Source: an uncultured Fibrobacteraceae bacterium (GTDB lineage Bacteria; Krumholzibacteriota; Krumholzibacteriia; LZORAL124-64-63). Taken from it: 45,941 nucleotides of DNA. A program made the translations under genes and the position numbers. Below the pieces are notes generated by a model. It was not told where the DNA came from. It saw only the letters and a program-made list of their open reading frames with translations, and did not search any database. Shown in pieces: positions 602 to 45,366 of this stretch. The stretch covers positions 1-45,941 of the forward strand of contig CAZVWL010000002.1 in assembly GCA_964630845.1 (NCBI GenBank), given 5' to 3'. Every line of letters begins with the position of its first letter. Within the stretch, counting starts at the first letter, position 1.

Positions 602-719
602 GCAGCAGAACGCGGAGGTGTTCCTTCCGCCTCGCCCAGGTTGAGCCGGATTCCAAGGATGGATGACGAGGCATCCGGGCGCGCAGCAGGCTCCGGCTTC
701 ATGACGAAAGGATTTCGTG

Positions 720-8826: not shown

Positions 8827-8855
8827 TTGACATGTAACCTTTTTTGTGATACAGT
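8827..8855 (+). promoter_or_regulatory. Strong sigma70-like promoter with extended -10, in an AT-rich island
   Basis: TTGACA (8827-8832), a 17-nt spacer ending in TGA, then TACAGT (8850-8855), which gives a TGnTACAGT extended -10. It lies about 100 nt upstream of the ATG at 8957 in a locally AT-rich segment (8806-8860). Confidence 0.55.
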
Positions 8856-8956
8856 CATGCGAGTTGCCACGCTTGCGGTTGGGTCCGTACGGGCTTGCCC
8901 GTGCCGTCGAGGACGTCTCAAACGGTCTATTCTGCCCGGACTTCAGGAGGAAATGG

Positions 8957-26655: not shown

Positions 26656-27482
26656 CGTTGCGCAGCGGGATCGGTCGGCGACGGATGGCGGCGCGTGCGA
26701 GTGGGCCGGCCCTGGTCCTGGCCCTGATGGCGGGCCTCGCGGCCGGCGCTTCGCCCGTCAACGACGGCGATGCCGCCGCCTTGACGCGGCTCGAGCGGCC
26801 GCCGTTCAGAGTCGGCGAACGCCTGGTCTTTTCGCTCGACTACGGGCTGGTCAACGCGGGCGAGGGCACGCTCGAGGTGGCCGGCACGGTGACGTTCCAA
26901 GATCAACCCTGCTACCGGATCGAGAGCACCGCGAGCAGCAACCGCTTCTTCTCGGGCATCTACCGCGTGCGCGACAAGGTCGTCAGCTACACCGACCGCG
27001 ACGGCCTGTTCAGCCGCTACTTCATGAAACGGCTGCGCGAAGGCACCTTCAAGCGCACCGAGGAGATCGTCTTCGACCACGAGGCCGGCCTGGCCCGTTA
27101 TCACGACGGCAAGCAGTACGAGATCGCTCCCGGCGTGCACGACGTGCTGTCCGCATTCTACTACGTGCGCATGCTGGACCTCGAGGTCGGCCGTGATGTA
27201 TTCTTGACCGTGCACGACAGCCGCAAGACCTACGACATGCGGATCATCGTCCATCGCCGGCAGGCCGTCGATTCGGTCCTCGGCACGGTCGACTGCTTCG
27301 CGATCCAGCCGGTGATGCTGGGCGACGGGCTCTTCAAGCACGAGGGCGAGCTGATGATCTACCTGACGGCCGACCAGCGGCGGCTGCCGGTGCGGATGAC
27401 CACGCGCCTGCCGGTCGGCTCCATCGTGGCCACGCTCGTTCAGCACGATCCCGGCCAGACGGACGAGGCCGATCGTGACTGA
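26652..27482 (+). CDS. DUF3108-like secreted/outer-membrane-associated protein
   Basis: Signal peptide (RRRMAARASGPALVLALMAGLAAGA), then FRVGERLVFSLDYGLVNAGEGTLEV ... CYRIES ... RLPVRM, as in the DUF3108 beta-barrel-like family. ATGA overlap with the upstream gene. Confidence 0.65.
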   Translation: MTLRSGIGRRRMAARASGPALVLALMAGLAAGASPVNDGDAAALTRLERPPFRVGERLVFSLDYGLVNAGEGTLEVAGTVTFQDQPCYRIESTASSNRFFSGIYRVRDKVVSYTDRDGLFSRYFMKRLREGTFKRTEEIVFDHEAGLARYHDGKQYEIAPGVHDVLSAFYYVRMLDLEVGRDVFLTVHDSRKTYDMRIIVHRRQAVDSVLGTVDCFAIQPVMLGDGLFKHEGELMIYLTADQRRLPVRMTTRLPVGSIVATLVQHDPGQTDEADRD

Positions 27483-29778: not shown

Positions 29779-30156
29779 ATGACCGTTCATGGCCTGGGCA
29801 CCGACATCGTCAGCGTCGCCCGCATCGCCGGCCTGGTGCAACGGCACGGTCCGCGCTTCCTGGATCGGGTCTTCCGGCCCGACGAGCAGCGGGTGCTCGC
29901 GCGGACCGGCGCCGCGGCGATGGCCGGCCTCGCGGCGCGCTGGGCGGCCAAGGAGGCCTTCGTCAAGGCCCTCGGGCCGCACGCCGCCGGGGTGCCTTAC
30001 CGCGATGTGGAGGTGATCCGGTCGCCGTCCGGCGCGCCGACGCTGCGCCTGCATGGAGCGGCGCAGAAGGCCCTGGACGCCGTCGGCGCCAGGCGCGCCC
30101 TGGTCACGCTCAGCCACGAGCACGACCATGCCGTGGCCACCGTCCTGCTCGTGTGA
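29779..30156 (+). CDS. acpS: Holo-[acyl-carrier-protein] synthase (4'-phosphopantetheinyl transferase)
   Basis: HGLGTDIVSVARI ... RWAAKEAFVKALG ... VTLSHEHDHAVATVLL. The protein is 125 aa. Confidence 0.88.
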   Translation: MTVHGLGTDIVSVARIAGLVQRHGPRFLDRVFRPDEQRVLARTGAAAMAGLAARWAAKEAFVKALGPHAAGVPYRDVEVIRSPSGAPTLRLHGAAQKALDAVGARRALVTLSHEHDHAVATVLLV

Positions 30157-30254
30157 TCCTGCCGGCGGTCGTGTCCCGGCTCTTGTCAGCCACGCCGTGA
30201 GCCTCTATGCTTGCGCTCCGATCTGCGACCGACGTGTAGTATTGCCGGCGCGAG

Positions 30255-31181
30255 GTGCTCAGACCCGTGACGAAGCTGGATTTCCTGCTCATCGACGTGT
30301 TCACCGACCGCGCCTTCGGCGGCAGTCGGCTGACCGTCTTCGCGGGCGGCGACGGGTTGACGCCCGGCCTGATGCACCGCCTGGCAAGGGAGATGGGTCC
30401 GGGCGAAACGGCGTTCCTGCTGGGAGCGCCGCCACCTGGCGGCAACCGGGGGCGCCTGCGGGTGTTCACGCCTCAGGTGGAACTGCCGTTCGCGGGACAT
30501 TCGCTGCTGGGCGCCACCTATGCGCTGGACGTGCTCGCCAAACGACGGCCGACCGACCACGAGGCGCCCTTCACCTGGGACCTGGAAACCGGCCACTACC
30601 AGGTGGTCACGCGGCAGACCGATCACGGCCTGATCTACAGCCTGCGCCACGACGCGCCGTCCTACCTGGGCGAGTACTACCATCGCGGCAAGGTCGCGCG
30701 GGCCCTCGGCCTGGAGGAAGGCGAACTGGCGATCACCGGGCTGCCCTGCGAGATCATCTCCACCGGGCTGCCGATCCACGTGGTGCCGGTCGGATCGCTC
30801 GCCGCGGTCCGGCGCGCATCGCTGCGCAAGGCCGAGGCCGACGCCATCGCGCGCGACCTCGGCTTCGGCGACCTCTTTCTGTTCACCTTCGAGACCGAGA
30901 CGGCCGGGGCGCTCGTGCACTGCCGCATGTTCGCGCCGCACCTGGGCATTCCCGAGGACCCCGCCAGCGGCGCCGCCTTCGGCGCGCTGGCCGCCTACCT
31001 GGTCAAGCACCGCCTGGCCCGCGCCACCGAACGGCTCGCCTTCATCGGCGAGCAGGGCCTGGAGATGGGTCGACCCAGCCGCCTCTTCGTCGAGGCGGCC
31101 ATCGAAGCCGGCCGCGCCGTGGACATCCACGTCGGCGGCCATTGCGTCCTGGTCGGGCGCGGGCAGATCCACCTGCCCTGA
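30255..31181 (+). CDS. PhzF-family isomerase-like protein
   Basis: LDFLLIDVFTDRAFGGSRLTVF ... ETAFL ... ELPFAGHSLLG ... CRMFAPHLGIPEDPASGAA. GTG at 30255; the in-frame GTG at 30267 is an alternative start. Confidence 0.8.
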   Translation: MLRPVTKLDFLLIDVFTDRAFGGSRLTVFAGGDGLTPGLMHRLAREMGPGETAFLLGAPPPGGNRGRLRVFTPQVELPFAGHSLLGATYALDVLAKRRPTDHEAPFTWDLETGHYQVVTRQTDHGLIYSLRHDAPSYLGEYYHRGKVARALGLEEGELAITGLPCEIISTGLPIHVVPVGSLAAVRRASLRKAEADAIARDLGFGDLFLFTFETETAGALVHCRMFAPHLGIPEDPASGAAFGALAAYLVKHRLARATERLAFIGEQGLEMGRPSRLFVEAAIEAGRAVDIHVGGHCVLVGRGQIHLP

Positions 31182-31238: not shown

Positions 31239-32894
31239 ATGACCCGTTCCGCCGGACTGTCTCCCGAGATGACCGAGATGGTGGTGCAGACGCTCAGGCA
31301 GGTGGTGCAGCGCGAGCTGCCGGACGCCCGGGTGCTCGAGCTGGACGAGAAGGACATCTTCCCGCTCGACCTCATCCACAAGCTGCTGTCGCCCGAGGTC
31401 GGCCTGCACTTGATCTTCCTGCCCGAATCGGCCGGGGGACTCGGCGGCGGCGCGCGCGACATCTGCCGCGTGAGCGAGGAGATGGCGGCGGTGGACCTCG
31501 GCGTGGCCACCGCGTTCCTGGCGATCTGCCTGGGCACCGACCCCATCCTGGTCGGCGGCACACCGGCCCAGCAGGCCCACTGGCTGCCGCGCATCGCGCA
31601 GGGCCTGATCGTCGCCTACGGCGTGACCGAACCCGAGGCGGGCAGCAACGTGGCCGCCCTCAAGACGGTCGCCGATCCGATCACGGGCCCCGACGGCGTG
31701 GTCACCCATTACCGGCTCAACGGCGTCAAGCAGTGGATCACCAACGGCGGCGTGGCCGACCTCTACACGATCCTCGCCAAGACACCGGGCGGGCCGTCGT
31801 TCTTCGTCGTGGAGAAGGGCACGCCGGGCCTTTCGGCGGGCAAGCACGAGGAGAAGCACGGCATCCGCGCCTCGAACACCTCGGCGGTGATCCTCGAGGA
31901 CGTCGTGGTGCCCGCGGCCAACCTGGTCGGCGACGTCGAGGGCGAGGGCCTCAAGCAGGCCAACGCCGTCTTCGGTTACACCCGCCTGATGGTCGGCGCC
32001 TTCGGCCTCGGCGGCGGCCAGGGGGCGCTCGACCGCGCCCTGCGCTACGGCCGCGAACGCATCCAGTTCGGCACGCCGCTGGTCGAGAAGCAGGGGTACC
32101 TGCTGAAGCTCATCGCGCCCCACTGGATCGACCTCTGCGCCGGCCGCGCCTACGTCGAGGCGATCGCCGCGCGCATCGACGCCGGCGAGACCGCGTTGCA
32201 GGTCGAGGGGTCGGTGGCCAAGCTCTGGTGCACCGAGGCCGGCAACCGCGCGGCCGACGCCGCCATCCAGGCGCTCGGCGGCTACGGTTACAGCCGCGAG
32301 TACATGGTCGAGAAGATCCGCCGCGACGTGCGCATCACCTCGATCTACGAGGGCACCAGCGAGATCCAGCAGAACATCATCGGCATGTTCCGCTGGAAGG
32401 AGACCGTGCGCGGCAAGGGAGCGCTCTACGAGCAGCTGGCGGCCGCCAGCCTGGCGGTCCATGCCGCGCAACCCGATTGCGGGGCCGACCTCGCCGCCGC
32501 CGCCCTGCGCGGCGTGAACCTGGCGATCCTCGACGCCCACGAGACCAAGACCGTGCGCCAGCAGCTCGCCCAGTTCGCGCTGGCCGACGTGATCTGCCGC
32601 GCGGAGGTCGCCGCCGCCCTGTCGGCGCGCGCGGCCGAGCGACGGGCCGCAGGCGCGCCCGATGCCGACCTGCTGGCGGCGGCCGGCCGCGTGTTCGGGC
32701 GCCAGGCGGTGCTCGCCGTCCGCGACCTGGCGTTCCTGGTGGCCAGCGGGTTCGCGCCGGCCGGCGACGCCGAGGCGGCCGCTCGCGGCGAGGCGCTGGC
32801 GGCTCGCGTCACGGCGCCGCTGGCGGCGGGGTCGCTCGCCGGGATGTGGTCCGACCTCGCGCTCGTCGGCGACCTCCTCAAGCGCGGCGAATAG
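31239..32894 (+). CDS. Acyl-CoA dehydrogenase with a ~170-aa Ala-rich helical C-terminal extension
   Basis: AYGVTEPEAGSNVAALKT, QWITNGGVADLYT, FGTPLVEKQ, ALGGYGYSREYMVEKIRRDVRITSIYEGTSEIQ. The extension runs from about nt 32391. The stop lies 2 nt before the next start. Confidence 0.88.
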   Translation: MTRSAGLSPEMTEMVVQTLRQVVQRELPDARVLELDEKDIFPLDLIHKLLSPEVGLHLIFLPESAGGLGGGARDICRVSEEMAAVDLGVATAFLAICLGTDPILVGGTPAQQAHWLPRIAQGLIVAYGVTEPEAGSNVAALKTVADPITGPDGVVTHYRLNGVKQWITNGGVADLYTILAKTPGGPSFFVVEKGTPGLSAGKHEEKHGIRASNTSAVILEDVVVPAANLVGDVEGEGLKQANAVFGYTRLMVGAFGLGGGQGALDRALRYGRERIQFGTPLVEKQGYLLKLIAPHWIDLCAGRAYVEAIAARIDAGETALQVEGSVAKLWCTEAGNRAADAAIQALGGYGYSREYMVEKIRRDVRITSIYEGTSEIQQNIIGMFRWKETVRGKGALYEQLAAASLAVHAAQPDCGADLAAAALRGVNLAILDAHETKTVRQQLAQFALADVICRAEVAAALSARAAERRAAGAPDADLLAAAGRVFGRQAVLAVRDLAFLVASGFAPAGDAEAAARGEALAARVTAPLAAGSLAGMWSDLALVGDLLKRGE

Positions 32895-32896
32895 CC

Positions 32897-35020
32897 ATGG
32901 CCGCGGCCGCCACGCGGCGCCCGGCGGGACTGTCCGAGGCCGACGATCTGCTGCTCGCGGCCTGCGCGCGCGGCCTCGACCGCCGCGGCCTGGTGACGCC
33001 CGCCGTGCTGGTGCTCGGTTCCCTGGGGCCCCTGTCGTTCCTCGGGGGGCAGGCCCTGCGCTGCCTGGCGCCGTTTCTGCAGCTGGCGGCCGAAGGTCGC
33101 GACTGGGACCGCCTCGCGCAGCTGCTGGAGGTGCGTGGGGCGGTCGAACGCCTGCTGGCCCACCTCGAGGCCCTGCCGGGCACGCTGCTGCAGACGCTGG
33201 ACCGCCCGGTGCCCGAAGACGCGGCGCACGCGATCCTCGACTGTGGTTCGACCACGACCAAGGCCGTGCTCGTGGCGCGCCGGGACGGTCGTTATCGCCT
33301 GCTCGGCCGGGCGGAGTCGCCGACGACGGTCGAGGCGCCGACGGCCGACGTGATGGTCGGCGTGTGCTCGGCGTTGCGGCAGCTCGCCGCCGAGACCGGC
33401 CAGGAGATCCTGGACGACGAGGGCGCGTTGCGGGCCGCCACCGGCCCCGCGCATGGGGTCGGCTCGTTGCTGGCGACCAGCAGCGCCGGCGGCGGTCTGC
33501 AGATGATCGTGCTCGGGCTGGTCGACGCGATGACCGCGGCGAGCGCCGAGCGGGCCGCCCTGGGCGCCGGGGCCATCGTCACCGACGTGGTCAGCTACAA
33601 CGACGCCGAGGACGACACGACACGCCTCGAGCGCCTGCGGCGCGCGCGCCCGGACATGGTGCTGCTGGCCGGCGGCACCGACGGCGGCGCCCGCGCGCAG
33701 GTCGTCGCGCTGGCCGAGCAGCTGGCGGCCGCCGAGCTGCGACCCCGCTGGGGTGACGGGCCCTTGCCGGTCGTCTACGCGGGCAACGCGGAGGCCGCCG
33801 CCGCCGTGGTCGAGGCCCTCGCCGGGCGGGCCGAGGTCGCCGTCGCGCCGAACCTGAGGCCCGCGCTGGAGGCCGAGCGCCTCGATCCGGTGCGCGCGGT
33901 CCTGCACGAGGTCTTCCTGCGCCACGTGATGGCCCGCGCGCCCGGCTACCCTGGCCTGCAGCGGCTCTGCACCGCGCCCGTGCTGCCGACACCGGCGGGA
34001 TTCGGCGAGGCGCTGGCGTTGCTGGCCGACCGACGCGAGGGCGATGCCGTCGCCGTGGACCTCGGCGGCGCGACCTGCGACGTGTTCAGCGTGCGCGACC
34101 GGCGGGTGTATCGCAGCGTGTCGGCGAACGTCGGCCTCAGCTTCAGCCTCGGCGCGGTGTGCGACCGCGCCGGGTGGGAGCAGGTCGCGCGCTGGCTGCC
34201 CATGTCGGTCGGGGCCGACGACCTGCGTGACCGCGTCCGCAACAAGATGATCCGGCCGACGACCATCCCGCAGACGCCCGAGGATCTGCTGGTCGAACAG
34301 GCGGCCGCGCGCGAGGCCCTGCGTCTGGCCATGCAGGATCACGCGCGGGCGCTGCAGCCGATCTCGAGCGGCCGGGACGGCCCGACCGGCGTGGCCGCGC
34401 TGGCGGAGGTGCGGCCCGGCCCGACCGGCGTCGACTGGCCGGGCGTGCGCCTGCTGATCGGATCCGGCGGCCCCCTGGCGCACGCGCCTCGGCGCAGCCA
34501 GGCCGCCGCCATGCTCATCGACGCCTGCCGGCCGGAGGGCCTGACCGAGCTGGCGGTCGATTCGGTCTTCGTCTTGCCGCACCTCGGCGCCTTGCGCCAG
34601 GTCGACGAACGGGCCGCCGTCGACGTGCTCGAGGCCGACGCGCTGGTGGCGCTGGGGGTCTGCCTGGCGCCGGTCGGCGACGCGCCGGTTGCGGTCGGCG
34701 AGGTCCTGGCCGAGGTCGAACTCGTGGCGACAGGCGACGACGCGCCGCCCGTGGTCTGCACGCTGCACGGCGGCGACCTGCTGCGCCTGCCGCTGGCCAC
34801 GGATCAGGAACGGCGCCTGGCCGTGCGGCCGCGCCCGGGCTGGGATTTCGGCGGCGGGCGCGGTCGCCCCGTGGAAGCGCTGGTCCGTGGCGGCGCCGTC
34901 GGGGTGGTGCTCGACGGGCGCGGCAAGCTGCTCGCCTGGCCGCCGGCCGAACTGGCGCGACGGGAGCAGGTGTACCGCTGGTTGACGGCGCTGGACGCCA
35001 TGCCCGAGGGGGTGGTGTGA
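32897..35020 (+). CDS. GlmL/MutL-family ASKHA-fold ATPase (glutamate-mutase-L-like) with a ~110-aa N-terminal extension; orphan, with no B12 mutase nearby
   Basis: ILDCGSTTTKAVLV (phosphate-1), SSAGGGLQMIVLGLVDAMTAASAERAALGAGAIV, PDMVLLAGGTDGG, VVYAGN, NLRP...VRAVLHEVFLRHV, VLPTPAGFGEA, and VAVDLGGATCDVFSV (second ASKHA lobe). The N-terminal extension carries the hydrophobic segment LVTPAVLVLGSLGPLSFLGG. Only the last 707 aa of the 1655-aa track ORF are real. Confidence 0.8.
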   Translation: MAAAATRRPAGLSEADDLLLAACARGLDRRGLVTPAVLVLGSLGPLSFLGGQALRCLAPFLQLAAEGRDWDRLAQLLEVRGAVERLLAHLEALPGTLLQTLDRPVPEDAAHAILDCGSTTTKAVLVARRDGRYRLLGRAESPTTVEAPTADVMVGVCSALRQLAAETGQEILDDEGALRAATGPAHGVGSLLATSSAGGGLQMIVLGLVDAMTAASAERAALGAGAIVTDVVSYNDAEDDTTRLERLRRARPDMVLLAGGTDGGARAQVVALAEQLAAAELRPRWGDGPLPVVYAGNAEAAAAVVEALAGRAEVAVAPNLRPALEAERLDPVRAVLHEVFLRHVMARAPGYPGLQRLCTAPVLPTPAGFGEALALLADRREGDAVAVDLGGATCDVFSVRDRRVYRSVSANVGLSFSLGAVCDRAGWEQVARWLPMSVGADDLRDRVRNKMIRPTTIPQTPEDLLVEQAAAREALRLAMQDHARALQPISSGRDGPTGVAALAEVRPGPTGVDWPGVRLLIGSGGPLAHAPRRSQAAAMLIDACRPEGLTELAVDSVFVLPHLGALRQVDERAAVDVLEADALVALGVCLAPVGDAPVAVGEVLAEVELVATGDDAPPVVCTLHGGDLLRLPLATDQERRLAVRPRPGWDFGGGRGRPVEALVRGGAVGVVLDGRGKLLAWPPAELARREQVYRWLTALDAMPEGVV

Positions 35021-36165
35021 TGAGCGTCGGGCGCGTCGGCCCCATCGCCGAACCCGGCGCCGTCCTGCGACGGTCGCGGCTGCTGCCGGCGGCCGGCGAG
35101 GTGCTGCTGGACGTCGGCGACCGCGTCGAATGGAACACCACGGTCGCGCGCGCGCCGGGACGTGGCCGGCTGCACACGATCAACGCCGCGCGCATCCTCG
35201 ACATCCCGCCCGGCGAGGTGCCGGGAGCGCTCGTGGTGACGGTGGGCGCCGCGGTCGAGGTCGGCGAGGTCGTGGCCAGGACGCGGGGCCTCTGGGGGCT
35301 GTTCGCCGCGGTTTGCCGGGCGCCCGTCGCGGGTACGGTGGCGGCGGTCTCGCCACACACCGGGCGCATCCTGCTCGAGGAACCGGGCGCGCAGATCGCC
35401 GTGCAGGCGTTCCTGCCGGGCATCGTGGCCGCGGTGGTGCCGGACCGCGGCGTGACGGTGGCCGGCTGGGCGGCGCGCATCGCGGGCGTGTTCGGGGCCG
35501 GCGGCGAACGCTCGGGGCCTCTGCGGCAGGTGGTGGGGCGGGCGGATGCCGTGCTCGACGCGGCGCAACTCGACGAGGGCCTAACCGGCGCGGTCATCTT
35601 CGGTGGTTCCCTGGTGACGGCGGCGGCGTTGCAGCGGGCGGCGGCGCTCGGCGTCGTCGGCCTGATCACCGGCGGCGTGCACGATCGCGACCTGACGGCG
35701 CTGCTCGGGCAGCCCAGCGTGCTGGCCGACACCACGGCAGCCGACCCGCCGCTGACCATCGTCGTGGTGGGGGGCTTCGGCCGCGTGCCGCTGTGGGACG
35801 ACGTGTTCACGCTGCTGCGCGCCCACGCCGGGCGCCGGGCCTGCGTGGTGGGGCGCACGAGGGTGCGGGCGGGAGCCGAGCGGCCGGAGGTCATCATTCC
35901 GCTGGACGGCGGACCGGAGCAAGCGTCGGCCCCGGTCTTGGCGGCCCCTACGCTGACGCCCGGCTGCCGGGTGCTCGTCGCGCGGGGTCCCTGGTTCGGC
36001 TGCACCGGCCGGGTCGGGCGGCTGCCCGCCGAACCTTGCCGGATCGAGAGCGAGGCGCGCTGCCCGGTCGCGGACGTCGATCTCGACCGGGGTGGCACGG
36101 CGCGCGTCGCCCTGGCCAATCTCGAACTCCTCGGCGGTCCGCAAGCGATCGGAGGTGGAGGATGA
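35017..36165 (+). CDS. Hypothetical protein: lipoyl/biotinyl-like barrel-sandwich hybrid motifs plus a C-terminal KOW-like motif
   Basis: GTGA overlap (or the ATG at 35020). VLLDVGDRVEWNTTVA and VTVGAAVEVGEVVARTRG...CRAPVAGTVAAVSPHTGRILLE fit the V.xGdxVxxGxxLa...aPvsGtV pattern. There is no AMKM biotinylation site. The C-terminal GCRVLVARGPWFGCTGRVGRL is KOW-like. I recognise no named family. Confidence 0.6.
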   Translation: MMSVGRVGPIAEPGAVLRRSRLLPAAGEVLLDVGDRVEWNTTVARAPGRGRLHTINAARILDIPPGEVPGALVVTVGAAVEVGEVVARTRGLWGLFAAVCRAPVAGTVAAVSPHTGRILLEEPGAQIAVQAFLPGIVAAVVPDRGVTVAGWAARIAGVFGAGGERSGPLRQVVGRADAVLDAAQLDEGLTGAVIFGGSLVTAAALQRAAALGVVGLITGGVHDRDLTALLGQPSVLADTTAADPPLTIVVVGGFGRVPLWDDVFTLLRAHAGRRACVVGRTRVRAGAERPEVIIPLDGGPEQASAPVLAAPTLTPGCRVLVARGPWFGCTGRVGRLPAEPCRIESEARCPVADVDLDRGGTARVALANLELLGGPQAIGGGG

Positions 36166-36971
36166 GCGGCTGGTGGGACCCCGCGACCTGGAACCTCGCC
36201 GTGACCCTGGCCGCCGTCGCGGGCCTCATCGGCTGGGGCATCTGGCGCACGCGCCGTCGCGGGTTGCCTGCCGTGCGACGCATCGCCGGCGTCGAGGCCA
36301 TCACGGCCGCCGTCGGCCGGGCGACCGAACTGGGCCGGCCGGTCTTCTACGTGGCCGGCACGCAGGACCTCGACGACGTGCAGACCGTGGCCAGTCTGGG
36401 CATCCTGGGCGCGGTCGGGCGTTTGACCGCGCGTCATGGCTGCACCCTGGTGATGCCGACGGACCGCAGCCTGGTGCTGGCCACCGCGCGCGAGGTCCTG
36501 CGCGAGAGCTACACGCAGACCGGCCGGCCGGACGGCTACTCGCCGGACATGGTCACGTACATCTCGGACGACCAGTTCGGCTTCGCCGCCCGCGTCGACG
36601 GCATGATCGCCCGCCAGAAGCCCGCCGCCTGCTTCCTGCAAGGAGCGTTCTACGCCGAGGCGCTGCTGCTCGCGGAGGCTGGCGCCCAGGTGGGCGCGGT
36701 GCAGGTCGCCGGCACCGCCATGAGCCACCAGCTGCCGTTTCTGGTGGCCGCTTGCGATCACGTGCTGATCGGCGAGGAGTTCTTCGCCGCGGAGGCTTAT
36801 CTCAGCGGCGATGGGCAGAAGCTCGGCAGCCTGCGCGGTCAGGACCTGCTGAAGGACGTCGTGATCGTGCTGGTGCTCGCGGGATCGGCGCTGGTCGGCG
36901 CGGCCTCGTTGACCGAGAGCGCGTGGCTTATGACCGCGCGCGATGCGTTGCTGAGGCTGCTGCAGCCATGA
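36162..36971 (+). CDS. Hypothetical N-terminally anchored protein (paralogue of the 37695-38585 product)
   Basis: ATGA overlap. TM segment WNLAVTLAAVAGLIGWGIW, a domain with GRPVFYVAGTQD and VAGTAMSHQLPFLVAACDHVLIGEEFFAAEAY, and a C-terminal hydrophobic segment VVIVLVLAGSALVGAA. Confidence 0.6.
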   Translation: MSGWWDPATWNLAVTLAAVAGLIGWGIWRTRRRGLPAVRRIAGVEAITAAVGRATELGRPVFYVAGTQDLDDVQTVASLGILGAVGRLTARHGCTLVMPTDRSLVLATAREVLRESYTQTGRPDGYSPDMVTYISDDQFGFAARVDGMIARQKPAACFLQGAFYAEALLLAEAGAQVGAVQVAGTAMSHQLPFLVAACDHVLIGEEFFAAEAYLSGDGQKLGSLRGQDLLKDVVIVLVLAGSALVGAASLTESAWLMTARDALLRLLQP

Positions 36972-36987
36972 CGAAGGAGTCCGGCGC

Positions 36988-37698
36988 GTGAAACGCCTCA
37001 TGCCCAGGATCATCACCTCGGCGGTCGGCATCCTGCTGATCCTGACCGCCCTGGGTAGCCGGCCCGGAGCCGACGGCGCCGGGCCCTGGCCGGCACACGT
37101 GTTCGACTACGTGGATCGCAACTTCTCCGTCTGGTTCAACATCCTGGCCGTCTTCGCCTTCATCCTCGGCGGGGCGAGCCTGCTCAAGAGCCACCTCGTG
37201 CGTGTGCTGCAGCGGCGTCCCGACTGGCCGTATTCGCTCGTGACCCTGGTCTCGTTCGTCGGGGTGCTCGTGATCGGGCTGCTGAAGCTGGGAGGGGCGC
37301 CCGGCCTGCAAGGTGAGGTCACCGCCCCGGACGCCTGGCTGCGGACGGTGTTCGTCGCGCTCTACGAGCCGCTGATGGCCACGCTCTTCTCCCTGCTCGC
37401 CTTCTTCGTGGCGTCGGCGGCCTACCGGGCCTTCCGGCTTCGCTCACGAGAAGCGTCGATCCTGCTCGGCGCGGCAGCCATCGTGCTCTTGGGGCGCACC
37501 CCCCTCGGCACCTGGCTGAGCGACCTGTTGCCGCGCAGCCTCGGATTTCTCCGCCTCGACACGCTGTCCATGTGGCTGATGCGGGTCCCGAACGTGGCCG
37601 GTCAGCGCGCGATCCTCATCGGCATCGCCATCGGCGTGGCGGCCCTCACGCTGCGCATCCTCGCCGGGCGAGGCGAGGTCGAAGGAGAGCGCTCATGA
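36988..37698 (+). CDS. Hypothetical polytopic membrane protein (about 6 TM segments)
   Basis: GTG start with a GAAGGAG RBS 7 nt upstream. Hydrophobic segments include IITSAVGILLILTAL, WFNILAVFAFILGGASLL, LVTLVSFVGVLVIGLL, LMATLFSLLAFFVASAAY, ILLGAAAIVLLG and AILIGIAIGVAALTL. Confidence 0.6.
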   Translation: MKRLMPRIITSAVGILLILTALGSRPGADGAGPWPAHVFDYVDRNFSVWFNILAVFAFILGGASLLKSHLVRVLQRRPDWPYSLVTLVSFVGVLVIGLLKLGGAPGLQGEVTAPDAWLRTVFVALYEPLMATLFSLLAFFVASAAYRAFRLRSREASILLGAAAIVLLGRTPLGTWLSDLLPRSLGFLRLDTLSMWLMRVPNVAGQRAILIGIAIGVAALTLRILAGRGEVEGERS

Positions 37699-38585
37699 CC
37701 CCGCCCGCGCGCGGCGACCTGCGCGCCCGACTCGGCCGGCTCGACCGCCGCTGGCTCTACGCGGCGCTGCTGATCGCCCTGGCTGCCACGCTCGTGCTGC
37801 AGCCGCTCTTCCCGGAGACGCCCTCGGTGTTCACGCGGCCGGTCTTCGCGCGAGTCGAGGCCCTGCAGCCCGGCACGCCGGTGCTCGTCTCGCTGGACTA
37901 CAGCCCCGCCTCGGCGCCGGAAATCGAACCCATGGCGCAGGCGGTCACGCGCCACCTGCTGCTGCGCGGCGCGCGTCCGGTGTTCGTCACGCTCTGGCCC
38001 GAGGGCAACAACATGATGCAGCGGCTGCGCGACCAGGTGCTCGCGCCCGAGTTCCCCGATCTGGTCGAAGGCCGCGATTTCGTCGCCCTCGGCTACAAGG
38101 CCGGCGGTCGCATGGTGATCAACGCGTTGCGCCAAGACCTCGCCGCCATGTACACGACCGATCTGCGCGGCGTGCCGCTCGATTCGCTGCCGGCCCTGAC
38201 GGGCATCGCCCGGCTCGCCGACTTCCCGCTCTTGATCGCCCTCTCGGGAGGCACGCCGGGCTTGAAGGAGTGGGTCCTGTACGGCGGCGACCCGACCGGC
38301 ATCCCGATCGCCGGCGGCTGCACGGCGATCGGCACGCCGGAGTTCCTGGCCTACTTCCCGGGCCAGCTGTTGGGACTGCTGGGAGGTCTGAAAGGCGCGA
38401 GCGAGTACGAGCACGCGCTCGCCCAGCGATTCGAGGATCGCGCCATCCCGCGCCGAGCCGGCCGCGCCATGGGACCACAAACGGTGGCCCACGTCCTGAT
38501 CCTGATGTTCCTCGTGTTCGGCAACCTGGACTACCTGCGACGCCGCCGTCGCTCCGGTCGCGGCGTCGACGGAGGCGGGCCATGA
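37695..38585 (+). CDS. Hypothetical bitopic protein (paralogue of the 36162-36971 product)
   Basis: ATGA overlap. TM segment WLYAALLIALAATLVL, a domain with GARPVFVTLWPEG and AGGCTAIGTPEFLAYFPGQLLGLLGGLKGASEYE, and a C-terminal TM segment VAHVLILMFLVFGNL. Confidence 0.6.
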   Translation: MTPPARGDLRARLGRLDRRWLYAALLIALAATLVLQPLFPETPSVFTRPVFARVEALQPGTPVLVSLDYSPASAPEIEPMAQAVTRHLLLRGARPVFVTLWPEGNNMMQRLRDQVLAPEFPDLVEGRDFVALGYKAGGRMVINALRQDLAAMYTTDLRGVPLDSLPALTGIARLADFPLLIALSGGTPGLKEWVLYGGDPTGIPIAGGCTAIGTPEFLAYFPGQLLGLLGGLKGASEYEHALAQRFEDRAIPRRAGRAMGPQTVAHVLILMFLVFGNLDYLRRRRRSGRGVDGGGP

Positions 38586-39259
38586 GCACCAGCTTCGAGG
38601 TCTGGGTCGGCGCCGCGTTGACCCTGATGGTCTTCAGCTTCTTGTGGCGCGACAACCCGTTCTACAAGGTCGCCGAACACCTGTTCGTCGGCGTCTCGGC
38701 CGGTTACTGGATGGTGATGGGGTTCTGGTCGACGCTGTGGCCGAACGCCATCGTCAAGCTCGCGCCGGCGGCCGCGCGCCTGACCGACCCGACGGCGGAG
38801 GTCGGCCCGCGCGAACCACTGGTCCTCATCCCGCTGCTGCTCGGCTGCCTCATGTTGCTGCGATTGTGGCCGCGCATGTCCTGGCTCGGGCGCTGGCCGA
38901 CGGCGTTCGCCGTCGGCACGACGCTTGGCTACAACGTCGTGCGCTACCTACGATCGGACTTCCTGGCCCAGATCAACGCGGCGATCTCGCCGGGCCTGGT
39001 CGTGCTGGCCGCTGACGGTGGCGTGAACTGGGCGGCGACGCTCGACCAGTGGGTGCTCGTGGCCGGCACCGCCTGCGGGCTGGTGTACTTCACCTACACG
39101 CGCGGCAGCGGCGGCCTGCGCGGCGGCCTCGCTCGCGGCGGGCTCATGGTGTTGATGATCGCCTTCGGCGCCAGCTTCGCGTATGCGGTGATGGCCCGGG
39201 TCGCGGTGCTGGTCGGCCGGCTGCAATTCCTTCTCGGCGACTGGCTCGGCGTGCTTTGA
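38582..39259 (+). CDS. Hypothetical polytopic membrane protein (about 6 TM segments)
   Basis: ATGA overlap. Hydrophobic segments include VWVGAALTLMVFSFLW, LFVGVSAGYWMVMGFW, LVLIPLLLGCLMLL, PTAFAVGTTLGY, WVLVAGTACGLVYF and GGLMVLMIAFGASFAYAVM. Confidence 0.6.
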   Translation: MSTSFEVWVGAALTLMVFSFLWRDNPFYKVAEHLFVGVSAGYWMVMGFWSTLWPNAIVKLAPAAARLTDPTAEVGPREPLVLIPLLLGCLMLLRLWPRMSWLGRWPTAFAVGTTLGYNVVRYLRSDFLAQINAAISPGLVVLAADGGVNWAATLDQWVLVAGTACGLVYFTYTRGSGGLRGGLARGGLMVLMIAFGASFAYAVMARVAVLVGRLQFLLGDWLGVL

Positions 39260-39343
39260 CGCTCGGCCCGGTTGATTCGGTCCGCGCGGCGCGTTACAAT
39301 TCTACCCCGTCGTCTTCACCGTACGTCCGCCGCGGGAGCGCCC

Positions 39344-40237
39344 ATGTCAGCCGATATGCCCGGCCTCGTCCAACAGATCGCGCACTTCGAGGCCCGTCTA
39401 CGCGATGACCCGAAGTCGCGCGCCTTCCTGCCGCTGGCCGACCTCTATCGGCGCACCGGCAAGCTCGAACGCGCCCGCCAGCTGCTCGCCGGCGGCCTCG
39501 AAGCCGATCCCGCCTGCGTCTCGGCCCGCGCGGCGCTCGGCGACGTGCTGGTCAGCCTGGGCGACCTCGCCGCCGCCCGCGGGCAACTGCAAGAGGTGCT
39601 CGACCGCGACCCCCAGAATCTGCTCGCCCTGCGCCTGCTGGCCGGCGACGCCGCCACGCGTGGCGAGTGGGAGACCGCGCGCACGTTGGCCGAACGCCTG
39701 CTGCGCCTGCTTCCCGAGGATGCCGAGGTCCGCAAGCTGTTGCGCGAGGTGCGCGGCCGCATGACGGCAGCGCCTGCGCCGCCGCGTCCGGTATCGCCCG
39801 CGCCGGTCCTGCCCTCGCCCCAAGCCGATCGCGGCGATCAGACCGCCGACGGCGCGCTCGGCATCGGCAGCGGCTTGGAGACGCCCACGCTGGCCGACCT
39901 CTACCGCCGCCAGGGCTACCCCGAGAAAGCGCGGGCCATCGTGATGCGGATCCTGGCGGCCGAACCCGGCCGCCGCGATGCCCTGGAGGTGCTGGCCCGG
40001 CTGGACGGGAGCACGCCTCCAGACGTGAACACCCCCGTGCCGCCTTCCGCCCCGACGGCCACGGGCACGCCGGACCAGCACGTCCCGGCCAGCCCGCCCA
40101 CGGTCGCCGGCCGGGCCAACGGCACGCCGTTGCGAACGGCGCCGGACATCGTGGCCGGGCGAGCGGCCGCCCGCCCGGACGACCTGGATCGTTTTCGGGC
40201 CTGGCTCGACCGCGCTGCCGACGCGCGGGACCCCTGA
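39344..40237 (+). CDS. TPR-repeat protein with a Pro-rich linker
   Basis: Repeated A/L/Y-rich 34-mers (FLPLADLYRRTGKLERARQLLAGGLEADPACVSARAALGDVL...; LADLYRRQGYPEKARAIVMRILAAEP). The linker reads APAPPRPVSPAPVLPSP. ATG at 39344 with GGGAGCG upstream; the track ORF starts at 39272. Confidence 0.7.
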   Translation: MSADMPGLVQQIAHFEARLRDDPKSRAFLPLADLYRRTGKLERARQLLAGGLEADPACVSARAALGDVLVSLGDLAAARGQLQEVLDRDPQNLLALRLLAGDAATRGEWETARTLAERLLRLLPEDAEVRKLLREVRGRMTAAPAPPRPVSPAPVLPSPQADRGDQTADGALGIGSGLETPTLADLYRRQGYPEKARAIVMRILAAEPGRRDALEVLARLDGSTPPDVNTPVPPSAPTATGTPDQHVPASPPTVAGRANGTPLRTAPDIVAGRAAARPDDLDRFRAWLDRAADARDP

Positions 40238-40332
40238 ACGGCCCCATTGCCGCGCGCAGGCACACCGTATATCGTGATGGCTTCCCGGCGGGCGATCAAC
40301 CCGCGTTCATGATGGTCAAAGGAGAGGGTGAC

Positions 40333-40890
40333 GTGGCCGATACCAGCGACTTCCGCACTGGCTTCACCTTGCGGTTCAAAGGCGAACTGTGGAGCATCAT
40401 GGATTTCCTGCACGTCAAGCCGGGCAAAGGCGGCGCCTTCGTGCGCACGAAGCTCAAGGGCGTCACCAGCGGCAAGGTCATCGAGGAAACGTTCCGCGCC
40501 GGTGAGAAGATCGACGAGGTGCGCCTGGAACGCCGCGACTACCAGTACCTCTACAACGACGGCGAATTCTACACGTTCATGAACATGGAGACCTACGAGC
40601 AGGTGCAACTGCCGGTCGAAATGCTCGGAGACCTGCCGCTCTACGTCAAGGAAAGCGACATCTGCAGCGTCCTCTCGCACGAGGACAAGCCGCTGACGGT
40701 CATCCCCCCGTTCACGGTCGAGTTGAAGGTCAAGCAGACCGATCCCGGCGTGCGAGGCGACACCGCTCAAGGCGGCAGCAAGCCCGCGACGATGGAGACC
40801 GGCCTGGTCGTCCAGGTGCCGCTGTTCATCGAGGAAGGGGCCGTGTTGAAGATCGACACCCGGACGGGCAAATATCTCGGCCGCGCCTAG
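40333..40890 (+). CDS. efp: Translation elongation factor P
   Basis: VADTSDFRTGFTLRFKGELWSIMDFLHVKPGKGGAFVRTKLKGVTSGKVIEETFRAGEKI ... TDPGVRGDTAQGGSKPATMETGLVVQVPLFIEEG. The protein is 185 aa. GTG at 40333 has GGAGAGG about 6 nt upstream. The modifiable loop carries Lys (KPGKGG). Confidence 0.93.
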   Translation: MADTSDFRTGFTLRFKGELWSIMDFLHVKPGKGGAFVRTKLKGVTSGKVIEETFRAGEKIDEVRLERRDYQYLYNDGEFYTFMNMETYEQVQLPVEMLGDLPLYVKESDICSVLSHEDKPLTVIPPFTVELKVKQTDPGVRGDTAQGGSKPATMETGLVVQVPLFIEEGAVLKIDTRTGKYLGRA

Positions 40891-40964
40891 CGGAACCGGC
40901 TTGCCAGGCTTGCGTGCCGCGGCGATGATGTCCCGGCAAGGATCCCAGTTCCCAGGAGGAGCCC

Positions 40965-41408
40965 ATGGACATCGCGAAGCTACGCGCCCTGGTCGACCTG
41001 GTCGTCGAGTCGGGTGTCGCCGAACTGACCGTCGAGTCGGATGACCTCAAGGTCACGGTCAAGGCCTACGGCGGGGCCGCAACGCCGCCGACAGCCTCGT
41101 TCGCGGCGTCGACGCCGTCGATCTCGGCCGTGGTCGCCGCCCCGGCCACCCCGGCCGCCGACACCTCGACGCGCCCGGTGACCTCGCCGATCGTCGGCAC
41201 TTTTTACCGCGCGGCGACTCCCGGTGGCCCCAACTTCGTGGAAGTCGGGCAGAGGGTCGTCGTCGGGCAGACGCTGGGCATCGTCGAGGCGATGAAGGTG
41301 ATGAACGAGATCGAGGCGGAGTTCGGGGGGATCGTCCGCGAGGTCTGCGTCGAGAACGGTCAACCCGTGGAAGCCGAAGCCGTCCTTTTCCGCGTCGAAC
41401 CGGCCTGA
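40965..41408 (+). CDS. accB: Acetyl-CoA carboxylase biotin carboxyl carrier protein
   Basis: Ala/Pro-rich linker, then SPIVGTFYRAATPGGPNFVEVGQRVVVGQTLGIVEAMKVMNEIEAE, which contains the EAMKM-type biotinyl-Lys motif. AGGAGGA RBS. Confidence 0.92.
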   Translation: MDIAKLRALVDLVVESGVAELTVESDDLKVTVKAYGGAATPPTASFAASTPSISAVVAAPATPAADTSTRPVTSPIVGTFYRAATPGGPNFVEVGQRVVVGQTLGIVEAMKVMNEIEAEFGGIVREVCVENGQPVEAEAVLFRVEPA

Positions 41409-41509
41409 CGAAGCCTCAAGGTGCCGCCACTTCGGCCGATCATTGCCGTGATCGCCCGCGCCTCCGCGCGGACGCTGCACAACGGTGATGCCCGGCCAGG
41501 AGTGGTGCC

Positions 41510-42664
41510 GTGTCTCTCGATATCAAACGTATTCTCAAGGACATGATCACCCGGGGCGCGAGCGACCTCCACCTGAAGGTGGCCTCCCCGCCCAACCTGC
41601 GAGTCAACGGCCGTCTGGTCATGCTCGATTATCCCGCCCCGACGGTGCAGGACATGATCGCGGTCGCCCAGCAGATCCTCACCCCGACGCAGCGGGAGCA
41701 GTTCGAGAAGACCCGCGAGATCGACTTCGCCTTCGGCGTGCCGGGCGTCGCCCGTTTTCGCGCTAATTTCTACGTGCAGCGAGGGTCCATCGCCATGGTC
41801 TTCCGGCACGTCCCCGTCGAGATCCACACCCTCGATGATCTCGGCCTGCCGCCCGTGCTGCGCGACCTGGCCCTGAAACCGCGGGGCCTGATCCTGATCA
41901 CAGGCACGGTGGGTTCGGGCAAGAGCACGACCCTGGCCAGCCTGGTCGACATCATCAACACCGAGTGCGCCAGCCATGTCATCACCATCGAGGACCCCAT
42001 CGAGTTCCTGCACAAGGACAAGCAGAGCATCATCAGCCAGCGCGAGATCGGCGCCGACACGGGCAGCTACGCCGAGGCGCTTCGCCACATCCTGCGCCAG
42101 GATCCTGACTGCATCCTGATCGGCGAGATCCGCGACGCCGATTCGATGAAGGTCGCCTTGACCGCGGCGGACACCGGCCATCTCGTGCTGAGCACGATGC
42201 ACACCATCGACGCCACGCAGACGATCAGCCGGATCATCAGCTTCTTCCCGCCGCATCAGCATCAGGAGATCCGTTATCTGCTGGCGTCCACCCTACAAGC
42301 GGTCGTGTCCCAGCGCTTGGTGCCCGATCCCCAGGGAGTGCGGCGCCATGCCGCCGTCGAGGTGATGATCACCACCAGCACGATCCGCGATTACATCCGC
42401 GAACCCGACAAGACCGTGCTGATTCGCCAGGCCATCCAGGAAGGCTTCGTGCAGTACCAGATGCAAACCTTCGACCAATCGCTGATGATGCTCTACAAGC
42501 AGGGGCGAATCAGCCTCGAGGGCGCGATGCAGGCTTCGAGCAATCCGCATGAGTTCTCGCTGCGCTTGAAGGGGATTCAGGCCAGTAGTGACACGACTTG
42601 GGAGAGGTTTGAGAGGGGGGGAGGGGTGGGGCAGGCCGAGCCCGTCCCCGAAGGCCTCCGCTAG
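41510..42664 (+). CDS. pilT: Type IV pilus retraction (twitching motility) ATPase, PilT family
   Basis: GASDLHLKVASPPNLRVNGRL, Walker A ITGTVGSGKSTTLASL, TIEDPIEF, Walker B / Asp box DPDCILIGEIRD, His box TGHLVLSTMHT, and STIRDYIRE. GTG start with an AGGAG RBS. Confidence 0.85.
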   Translation: MSLDIKRILKDMITRGASDLHLKVASPPNLRVNGRLVMLDYPAPTVQDMIAVAQQILTPTQREQFEKTREIDFAFGVPGVARFRANFYVQRGSIAMVFRHVPVEIHTLDDLGLPPVLRDLALKPRGLILITGTVGSGKSTTLASLVDIINTECASHVITIEDPIEFLHKDKQSIISQREIGADTGSYAEALRHILRQDPDCILIGEIRDADSMKVALTAADTGHLVLSTMHTIDATQTISRIISFFPPHQHQEIRYLLASTLQAVVSQRLVPDPQGVRRHAAVEVMITTSTIRDYIREPDKTVLIRQAIQEGFVQYQMQTFDQSLMMLYKQGRISLEGAMQASSNPHEFSLRLKGIQASSDTTWERFERGGGVGQAEPVPEGLR

Positions 42665-42671
42665 ACTTGTA

Positions 42672-43969
42672 GGTGCCTAGGAGATTGTGTCCGAGGTAGC
42701 CATGTGCCGGTTCGGTGCTCGTCGTATGGCAATGTTCCGGTTGGTTCAGTGAACGGTGCTGGGCCGACACGCCATCCGCCTAGCAGCGAGATTTGGCTCA
42801 GCCGTCACCATGTGGCTCAAAATGCGTACTTTAGCCGATGTCGACCGTTGCGCCCGAGAACAGGTGTCAGCACATCCCGCCAGTAGTATCGCTCCCAGCT
42901 TGCCGGCAACTCGTAATGTGCCGGGAACAATCGCTGACCGAGGATGTCATCAGCCGTCAACACCCGGTCCGCCAATCCCAGGATCATCGCCGGCGTCTCT
43001 CGGCAACGTTTCTCCCAGCGCCGCTTTTCGCAGTTGCGCCACACCGTGAACACCGCCATCCGGTACGCCGACTCCTGGCGGCGCTTCGAGAACGCGATCG
43101 TCTCGCGGCGATGATTTGCGCTACAATGCCGCATAAACATGTCTAGCACGTTCACTTCGAAGAGCTCGTTGCGCCGATCTCGTCGCTTCCGGCTACTGGT
43201 CTGGCGGTGCTCCACCTGACATTGCAGTCCCCGAATGACCCTCGCATATGCTTGGTGCTCGTCACTGCGAACGATCGCTTGCCCGGTACCGCGCAACGCC
43301 GATTCCAGCAATTCCCGGGTAGCGTTCTGCACCGCCTTCGGGTCGGGGCGGCCGTGCTTGGCTTCTAACTCCTGGCGACGCCTTTTCTGGTGCTCAGTCA
43401 TGCGGCCGCTGCGTCGCAACGGAGCGTCGTTGAAGTGAATGATGAAACTGGAGTTGCAGTCGACGGCGTGCAGGTGCTCGAAGGGGTGGAACTGACTGTA
43501 CTCGAAGCAGGCGATACCGTCGATGGCGATGTCAGCGAAAGGTGACGCTTGCTGTAGGAGGTGTCGCTGGAAGAGCAGGCAGTGTCGACCGAGGCGACCG
43601 AGCTGTCGGTCGACGGTTCCTGGGGCGCATCGGTTGGGCCTGGCGAACTGTCTGTTGGCCATGGCGCCGACCGTGTGATTGTAGATCTTGGCCAGCAGGG
43701 ACGGACGTTTTAGCCAGTAACTGGTTGAGAATGTTTGGTTTGAAAAGGATCTACGGCAGGCAAGGCATCGATACCGTTGGACGGTGTGTGGTTTGATATG
43801 GCGGCGAAAGAAGCCGGCTTTTCGGTATGGCCAGTGGCCGGGTTGAGGCATATGGTAGGGGCACTCCGGGTTGGGGCAGTGCGGAGGGGTCCAGTCCGGG
43901 TCGTGAGTTCGGTCTTGATGCATGCCCCTTCTGGGCAAGGACTGGGCCCGACACAATCTTGTAGGCACA
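42672..43969 (-). mobile_element. Insertion sequence (IS1-like, family uncertain) with imperfect terminal inverted repeats and one transposase gene
   Basis: Core inverted repeat: CCTAGGAGATTGTGTCCG (42676-42693) against the reverse complement of 43948-43965, CCTACAAGATTGTGTCGG, 15/18 identical. It can be extended outward by GGTG/TGTG (3/4). Visibly lower G+C than the flanks. It contains a Zn-ribbon transposase ORF. I found no target-site duplication. Confidence 0.6.
42817..43923 (-). CDS. DDE-type transposase with an N-terminal zinc ribbon (IS1-like C-terminal signature)
   Basis: CPNPECPYH...[12 protein letters not shown] (CxxC...CxxC). The C-terminal [38 protein letters not shown] resembles the IS1 InsB pattern NxxLRxxxxRLxRKTxxFSK. 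The start is set at MHQDRT (43923) so that the CDS lies inside the IRs; the track ORF extends to 43974. Confidence 0.6.
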
Positions 43970-43983
43970 ACCAAAGGGTCGGT

Positions 43984-45337
<1,354 letters not shown>

Positions 45338-45366
<29 letters not shown>

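Follow-up and report, generated by a model that had tools for sequence, protein, structure and literature searches.

The GlmL/MutL proteins have been described as chaperones for the reactivation of glutamate mutase (PMC4682846), and the GlmL family has been listed among the non-polymerising actin-fold enzymes (PMC5597319). The family is not confined to glutamate mutase operons, as the first-pass annotation of the present sequence had it, since one curated model (NF040744) covers relatives in an ornithine-degradation context. In the present study, a GlmL/MutL-type ATPase of the ASKHA fold was analysed in a 45,941-nucleotide stretch of contig CAZVWL010000002.1 (hereafter the window), where its gene is followed by those of a barrel-sandwich-like protein (BSH) and of four membrane proteins (DUF6754, M5, M6 and M7) and is preceded by an acyl-CoA dehydrogenase (ACAD) gene. 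Herein, we propose, at a probability of roughly 0.4, that these products represent an undescribed inner-membrane complex served by a module of an ASKHA ATPase and its adaptor. On the features tested, the module appears to fit no known kind of system, and five of its eight families are without any model. No paper on DUF6754, on PF13941 in such a context, on PF20539 or on the module itself was found in the literature searched, and the downstream proteins fall into no characterised family, consistent with the earlier claim that the system has not been described.

The seven-gene block and its ATPase unit

The window has a G+C content of ~70%, and its closest relatives are labelled Candidatus Krumholzibacteriota (79% identity on the DUF6754 protein). 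The features of the block are as follows.

31239..32894, + strand: acyl-CoA dehydrogenase (ACAD), 551 aa; Pfam Acyl-CoA_dh_N/M/1
32897..33232, + strand: SP domain, residues 1-112 of the 707-aa ATPase product; jackhmmer family
33233..34636, + strand: GlmL/MutL-type ASKHA ATPase core, residues 113-580; PF13941
34637..35020, + strand: C-terminal extension of the ATPase, residues 581-707; alignment across 21 module-type sequences
35017..36165, + strand: BSH protein, 382 aa; sub-threshold RnfC_N match, AlphaFold 2 (AF2) model, Foldseek and PDB profile search
36162..36971, + strand: DUF6754 protein, 269 aa; PF20539
36988..37698, + strand: M5, 236 aa, six transmembrane (TM) segments; hydropathy and alignment
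37695..38585, + strand: M6, 296 aa, TM helix, domain, TM helix; hydropathy, Lys/Arg counts and alignment
38582..39259, + strand: M7, 225 aa, about six TM segments; hydropathy and invariant columns

The seven + strand genes, with the boundaries, overlaps and spacer reported for them earlier, were all confirmed in the sequence. The ACAD stop codon (TAG, 32892-32894) is followed by CC and then by the ATG of the ATPase at 32897; GTGA at 35017 joins the ATPase to BSH, with an in-frame ATG at 35020, and ATGA overlaps were read at 36162, 37695 and 38582. The sole spacer of the block is 16 nt long, CGAAGGAGTCCGGCGC, and lies 5' of the GTG start at 36988, with the GAAGGAG motif inside it. Four-base overlaps of the GTGA and ATGA type occur at the junctions, and the module genes are translationally coupled. 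Genes called independently on L161, a related contig of 2.4 Mb, form the same set with the same sizes. Conservation across many phyla shows that the arrangement is no accidental string of open reading frames (ORFs). Sigma-70-like promoter matches were observed at 30183-30211 (5' of a PhzF-like gene) and at 39272-39300 (just past M7), and none was observed inside the seven-gene block; the positions of these matches lend weak support to a single transcript of the block. The ACAD gene is probably co-transcribed with the module here.

All six motifs of the GlmL/MutL set that the first-pass annotation had claimed were located in the 707-aa product (DCGSTTTK at 115, SSAGGGLQM at 195, LLAGGTDGG at 256, VYAGN at 293, LPTPAGF at 363 and DLGGATCDV at 388). 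The product matches Pfam MutL (PF13941) over residues 113-580 with 368.9 bits (gathering score 27, E 4.8e-110). Its nucleotide-binding motifs DCGSTTTK, DLGGATCDV and GSGGP are intact and are invariant across the clade, and the phosphate-1 and phosphate-2 motifs of the ASKHA fold are likewise invariant in 21 aligned module-type sequences. The GlmL-related NCBIfam models (NF040745, NF040744 and TIGR01319) are all missed: the window ATPase scores 214.7 against a cut-off of 475 for GlmL, 189.8 against 600 for Or-4, and 135 against 204 for glmL_fam, and 20 relatives from other phyla are, as judged from E-values, also well under the three cut-offs (best E 7.4e-72, 3.6e-68 and 1.3e-54). Moreover, a C-terminal extension of ~125 aa with the motif GG.VG..LD.RGR, which has neither a Pfam match nor a PDB relative, is common to all 21 module-type sequences from several phyla. 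The missed cut-offs and the conserved extension support the view that the module-type ATPase is a distinct GlmL subgroup, and on these sequence criteria such proteins do appear to stand apart, as the first-pass annotation had suggested checking. Searched against all PDB sequences, a profile of the clade detected no solved relative. As had been stated before, no mutase, aminomutase or B12 gene was observed among the window ORFs scanned, a scan outside which the stretch at 22.7-27.4 kb lay; similarly, when 160 related loci were clustered, no conserved mutase-like neighbour family was observed in the ~86 loci that carry a module-type GlmL.

The BSH protein, which has neither a signal peptide nor a TM segment, shows a mean column identity of 61% over 26 relatives, with the motifs FG.GGE, TEGFG and GATQIRAGV.RPE. 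Its match to the RnfC_N barrel-sandwich family of Pfam (21.3 bits) is under the gathering score of 25.6. The AF2 model (pLDDT 78.5) consists of a beta-rich N-terminal half, a central alpha/beta domain and a small C-terminal barrel; Foldseek matched this model to the KOW domains of Spt5/NusG and to NusG of T. maritima, and the BSH profile reached NusG/Spt5 and the sandwich-barrel hybrid motif (SBHM) of the RNA polymerase (RNAP) beta' subunit in the PDB at E 0.01-0.04. The model, the Foldseek matches and the alignment are thus consistent with the earlier description of a barrel-sandwich-like protein with a KOW-like C-terminus and no modifiable Lys. Since the hairpin carries no invariant Lys, a swinging-arm cofactor on BSH appears unlikely. 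The protein belongs to no named family according to Pfam, NCBIfam, PDB sequence and Foldseek searches. In the window and in L001, BSH deviates at near-invariant sites (TEGFG to VGGFG, NGATQIRAGV to VGRTRVRAGA and GVAITGSE to VLADTTAA), which hints at a relaxed or altered function in this lineage. In addition, two metagenome contigs (L109:9839-13824 and L142:9923-13827) carry BSH with neither GlmL nor a cassette within 10 kb, so the BSH family is broader than the module. In both contigs, BSH precedes genes for a predicted outer-membrane protein and for accA-like and era-like proteins, as read from N-terminal sequences and not from a profile scan, and in L142 it comes after a dnaK/grpE/dnaJ-like run. 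A tandem order of GlmL, BSH, SP, GlmL and BSH was observed in other metagenome contigs (L115:4391-11071, L119:4224-11077, L139 and L128).

Two small proteins, SP and TMP, complete the module, and neither has a Pfam family. SP is moderately hydrophobic, carries the motif PA(I/V)L.LES..PL.F.G.Q and was detected as a gene of ~100-140 aa in 56-60 of 164 loci (jackhmmer); residues 1-112 of the ATPase in the window are the same protein. The extra N-terminal segment of ~110 aa noted earlier is therefore present, but it is a separate conserved protein that has been fused to the ATPase. This fusion was observed only in the window, L001, L002 and L161. In L163, SP is a separate gene in the order ACAD, 141-aa protein, SP (127 aa), MutL (617 aa), BSH and cassette. 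The usual position of SP is just upstream of GlmL; in L118 and L140 it sits between BSH and DUF6754, and in L043 and L055 it lies beside a cassette without GlmL-BSH. Because SP is fused to GlmL here, is placed between BSH and DUF6754 elsewhere and also occurs beside lone cassettes, it may bridge the two units. Its fusion and shifting position, the best evidence at the sequence level, suggest that the ATPase unit interacts with the membrane unit. TMP (141-154 aa) has two TM segments and a small C-terminal domain, for which only insignificant hints of a bacterial PH domain were obtained. It accompanies SP in 36 loci (L163:6215-6640, L164:5575-6039 and 34 more), so that the module includes TMP elsewhere and lacks it in the window.

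The membrane cassette and its conservation

Membrane topology was assigned by combining a Kyte-Doolittle scan with AF2 helices and alignments, since at a threshold of 1.5 the Kyte-Doolittle scan calls too many TM segments in soluble proteins rich in Ala and Val and too few in DUF6754 and M7. Two proteins with anchored domains (DUF6754 and M6) alternate with two proteins of about six TM segments (M5 and M7), in agreement by hydropathy with the first-pass annotation. The first membrane protein, which had been regarded as unplaceable along with the other three, belongs to Pfam DUF6754 (PF20539; 313.6 bits, gathering score 27, E 1e-93), and for M5, M6 and M7 the statement stands. In the AF2 model of DUF6754 (pLDDT 92.5), a six-stranded Rossmann-like domain lies between an N-terminal TM helix and a set of C-terminal helices, one of which is a second TM helix, and hydropathy peaks were observed at residues 12-28 and 233-249. 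Because basic residues follow the first TM helix, the soluble domain is predicted to be cytoplasmic. In many homologues an extra N-terminal region of ~130-200 aa with an FN3-like match is present, which is predicted to sit outside the cell. By alignment and the AF2 model, the invariant residues lie on loops after the beta-strands, at the C-terminal edge of the beta-sheet; such loops are the usual ligand site of Rossmann-like folds, and the domain, as modelled, probably binds a ligand. Foldseek matched the DUF6754 model to generic Rossmann-type proteins only (molybdenum cofactor carrier protein, DprA, RCK and others; best E 3.5e-3).

M5 contains six hydrophobic segments, with both termini inside by the positive-inside rule, and its conserved motif LAFFVASA.YRAFR, with the invariant core AFFVASA.YRAFR, is on the predicted cytoplasmic side. 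M7 has about six TM segments and a conserved FSFL(Y/W)(K/R)DNPFYK.AEH after the first of them, which is also predicted to face the cytoplasm. The alignments show no invariant acidic residues in the TM segments of M5 and M7. M6 consists of an N-terminal TM helix, a domain of ~220 aa and a C-terminal TM helix; because it is Arg-rich at both termini, the domain is predicted to be periplasmic. Homology between M5 and M7 and between DUF6754 and M6 was tested with hhalign and rejected.

No Pfam, NCBIfam, PDB-sequence or PADLOC match was obtained for M5, M6 and M7 of the window. A Pfam scan of 26 diverse relatives of each gave no consistent family, the corresponding NCBIfam and PDB searches gave none, and the precomputed Pfam annotation on related contigs was blank for all three. 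Profiles of BSH, DUF6754, M5, M6, M7 and the GlmL clade, searched against all PDB sequences, gave nothing under E ~0.01, such matches being confined to the KOW and SBHM parts of BSH. The profile and PDB searches placed the membrane proteins in no characterised family; a confident placement in such a family, which the first-pass annotation had named as speaking against its proposal, was not obtained. More broadly, no known transporter, respiratory, secretion or defence family was observed among the module proteins (Pfam, NCBIfam, PDB and PADLOC), and the PADLOC defence models gave no match at E 0.01 or better.

Conservation was analysed from two sides. First, 185,579 species-representative genomes, one per species, were scanned for DUF6754; at least 589 relatives were confirmed, and 80 loci were kept. 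Second, a scan of metagenome contigs anchored on BSH provided the reverse view, also with 80 loci. The DUF6754-anchored loci bear ~12 phylum-level labels in all, including Krumholzibacteriota, Zixibacteria, Ignavibacteria, Planctomycetota, Gemmatimonadota, Eisenbacteria, Fermentibacteria, Cloacimonadota, Marinimicrobia, Acidobacteriota and others, and the order DUF6754-M5-M6-M7 is kept in 72-76 of the 80, so that synteny of the cassette across phyla was borne out. Throughout this set, GlmL and BSH are either both present or both absent. GlmL-BSH flank the cassette in 18 of the 31 loci that have 5 kb or more of sequence on each side, and these 18 loci are labelled Planctomycetota, Zixibacteria, Fermentibacteria, Acidobacteriota, Marinimicrobia and Krumholzibacteriota. 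The layout of GlmL-BSH relative to the cassette varies (same strand upstream, divergent or downstream), which argues for selection rather than for one inherited layout. In the BSH-anchored set, GlmL lies upstream in 33 of the 46 loci whose upstream sequence spans 3 kb or more, and six of the 16 loci flanked by 8 kb or more on each side carry GlmL, BSH and cassettes together.

Many Zixibacteria and Ignavibacteria loci contain two or three tandem cassettes. Three cassettes behind one GlmL-BSH were observed in L017 (5886-17977), L057, L044, L072, L063 and L025, and also in L014, L012, L005, L019 and L062, all of Zixibacteria or Ignavibacteria type. Since the third-position copies cluster together across loci, the cassette paralogues are ancient.

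A proposed single complex and its alternatives

Several observations weigh against a single complex. The cassette lacks GlmL-BSH within ~10 kb in 13 of the 31 loci, including Eisenbacteria-labelled ones, and the Gemmatimonadota locus L162 consists of the cassette alone. Conversely, among the 16 well-covered BSH-anchored loci, five carry GlmL-BSH without a cassette and five carry BSH without either partner. The picture of six genes welded into one unit, as first drawn, is therefore not upheld as a general one. In one metagenomic lineage, moreover, the genes for GlmL, a secreted protein and BSH are immediately followed by a TolQ-TolR-TolA-TolB-Pal-CpoB-like run (L087:698-9703, L095:2051-11032, L098, L101 and L138; identities were read from N-terminal sequences and not from a profile scan). 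The secreted protein of this lineage is ~265 aa long and has no Pfam family, and the flanking sequence covered holds no cassette. Foldseek of the BSH and DUF6754 models also gave no informative whole-protein match. These observations suit an explanation with two independent systems that are often adjacent, in which GlmL-BSH, with SP and TMP, would be a general ATP-dependent pair, cytoplasmic or peripheral to the membrane, and would have a role of its own, for example in the envelope as a chaperone or regulator that acts next to Tol-Pal as well, and the cassette would be a self-sufficient complex or secondary transporter. Either unit does occur alone within 8-10 kb, and L109 and L142, in which a lone BSH neighbours genes resembling accA and era, point in the same direction. 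However, two unrelated systems would not be expected to be adjacent under six phylum labels in several layouts, to be joined by four-base overlaps as in the window, or to share SP and TMP, which accompany either unit, with SP fused to GlmL here. We regard two separate systems as a somewhat unlikely explanation, although it is the main rival to a single complex.

For a single complex served by the ATPase module, the following mechanism is proposed. The membrane unit would consist of four subunits, with a ligand-binding domain in DUF6754, a TM core of M5 and M7 and a periplasmic domain in M6. The cytoplasmic unit would consist of the GlmL-type ATPase and the BSH adaptor, and SP, fused to the ATPase here, would link it to the membrane unit. 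The binding and hydrolysis of ATP might act, by way of BSH and SP, on the DUF6754 domain and on the conserved loops that M5 and M7 present to the cytoplasm, and would so drive or gate a conformational cycle in the membrane complex, by which a non-ionic, probably hydrophobic or envelope-destined cargo might be moved or assembled toward the periplasmic domain of M6. The cargo is taken not to be an ion because the TM segments contain no invariant acidic residues. In other phyla, one ATPase-adaptor pair appears to serve two or three paralogous cassettes, as in the sharing known from ECF (energy-coupling factor) and ABC transporters. Thus, we infer, as did the first-pass annotation, an ATP-driven membrane complex. 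A bolder extension, which we consider doubtful, is that the module represents a new class of envelope machine with an actin-fold ASKHA motor in place of a P-loop ATPase or an ion-driven stator. In such a machine, GlmL, BSH/KOW and an SP tether would power one to three four-subunit complexes that move or assemble a hydrophobic envelope component in or across the inner membrane, in phyla labelled mostly as FCB-group, Planctomycetota and Acidobacteriota.

The same components might instead form a membrane-bound enzyme complex and not a translocase, in which the GlmL-type protein, kin to the hydantoinase/oxoprolinase branch, would phosphorylate or activate a small molecule bound by DUF6754. A weak Hydantoinase_A match on the ATPase in Pfam, the enzyme-like invariant loops in DUF6754 and the enzyme-like BSH motifs (FG.GGE, TEGFG and GATQIRAG) are consistent with this explanation. 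It is nevertheless improbable: none of the partners could be placed in a catalytic family, the window BSH has lost several of the near-invariant residues (VGGFG and GRTRVRAGA), and the periplasmic domain and the two polytopic subunits would be left unexplained.

Less probable still, to the point of being a poor candidate, is an acyl-CoA- or lipid-handling complex coupled to the upstream ACAD. The ACAD contains three Pfam domains and a helical C-terminal extension of ~170 aa, and the NCBIfam ACAD equivalogs were all far under cut-off. Only 2 nt separate its stop codon from the ATPase start, acpS, accB and accC are nearby, and ACAD is kept upstream of the module in L001, L002, L003 and L009, as well as in L161 and L163. 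The first four are, however, the only ones among the 80 DUF6754-anchored loci, all six are close relatives within the window lineage, and the neighbours that are conserved across the 80 BSH-anchored loci include no ACAD family. The general link to an ACAD that had been proposed is thus not sustained. As an operon neighbour, ACAD is confined to this lineage, and it is not a component of the module; acyl or cofactor handling tied to it is unlikely as a general function.

The surroundings of the block are shared among the window (29779-31181 and 39272-45366), L161 and L163: GT9, PMT_2, Bac_transf, AcpS, PhzF and ACAD precede the module, and TPR, EF-P, AccB, PilT, AccC and FtsK follow it. Because AcpS, AccB and AccC belong to this neighbourhood, fatty-acid synthesis genes flank the module in the window lineage. 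The pilT gene at 41510 is outside the module unit. Elsewhere in the window, a ParA/MinD-type ATPase (AAA_31, CbiA) at 705-1793 (+ strand) is fused to a C-terminal AMPK1_CBM/CBM48 glycogen-binding module, an unusual pairing. A 1644-aa protein at 8831-13765 (+ strand) combines a gingipain-like Peptidase_C25 domain with FG-GAP repeats and a C-terminal FlgD_ig domain. At 22700-27400, the G+C content rises to ~75%, long overlapping ORFs occur in several frames on both strands, and the frame with the highest G+C at third codon positions switches several times.

Scarcely credible, finally, is a conventional GlmL reactivase or chaperone for a B12 mutase encoded elsewhere in the genome: the strong Pfam MutL membership and the chaperone role of GlmL/MutL (PMC4682846) speak for it, but the GlmL, Or-4 and glmL_fam cut-offs are missed in all 21 sequences, an extra conserved C-terminal domain is present, the constant partner is BSH, and neither a mutase-like neighbour family in the ~86 loci nor a B12 gene among the window ORFs scanned was observed.

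Significance and comparison with known systems

The module consists of seven or eight co-evolving families, five of which lack any family assignment and one of which is known only as a DUF, and it occurs in at least ~590 of the species-representative genomes scanned. Should the ATPase prove to energise the cassette, the module would be the first case of a GlmL-type ASKHA ATPase powering a membrane machine, and the GlmL/MutL family, now seen solely as an aid to B12 mutases, would have to be viewed differently. On a conservative reading, the analysis provides testable components for genes now called hypothetical in Planctomycetota, Zixibacteria, Ignavibacteria, Gemmatimonadota and related candidate phyla, and corrects the misleading labels "glutamate mutase L" and "NusG". 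The analysis also indicates cultured carriers that may be amenable to genetics; for example, a Singulisphaera-labelled assembly has the module.

Among described systems, the GlmL/MutL proteins share with the module ATPase an ASKHA domain over ~450 residues with intact phosphate-binding motifs (369 bits). They differ from it in that the module ATPase falls under the curated cut-offs, carries the ~125-aa C-terminal extension and, in the window lineage, the fused SP, and is never beside a mutase, its constant neighbour being BSH and often the cassette. With RnfC/NqrA and the SBHM of RNAP beta', BSH shares a hairpin of the G(D/E)xVxxGxxL type through sub-threshold matches, but unlike RnfC/NqrA it has no NADH/FMN-binding, SLBB or Fe-S modules and no modifiable Lys. 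No Pfam or NCBIfam match to the Rnf-Nqr membrane subunits (RnfA/D/E/G) was observed in M5, M6 and M7, either in the window or in the 26 relatives of each. The likeness to NusG/Spt5 concerns the C-terminal ~55 residues of BSH, a KOW/Tudor-like barrel (Foldseek probability ~1.0 to isolated KOW domains), and the JGI label "NusG" on BSH homologues rests on this KOW domain alone; BSH has neither an NGN domain nor a NusG Pfam match, and its context is unrelated to transcription.

Two further comparisons are functional analogies only. In the PilM-PilN-PilO and FtsA systems, a short peptide or a small protein brings an actin-fold ATPase to partners in the inner membrane that are bitopic or polytopic, a principle that the module would share. 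It differs from them in having no sequence kinship and no pilus or divisome genes in its conserved set, and no Pfam match to PilM/GspL-type ASKHA, PilN/PilO or GspM families was observed among its products. The ECF and ABC transporters differ from the module in that its ATPase is of the ASKHA and not the P-loop type, and none of the six products matches an ABC or ECF family. The resemblance to these transporters is that one ATPase unit stands beside one to three paralogous membrane modules, and that the membrane subunits carry conserved cytoplasmic motifs which, by analogy, might be docking sites for it.

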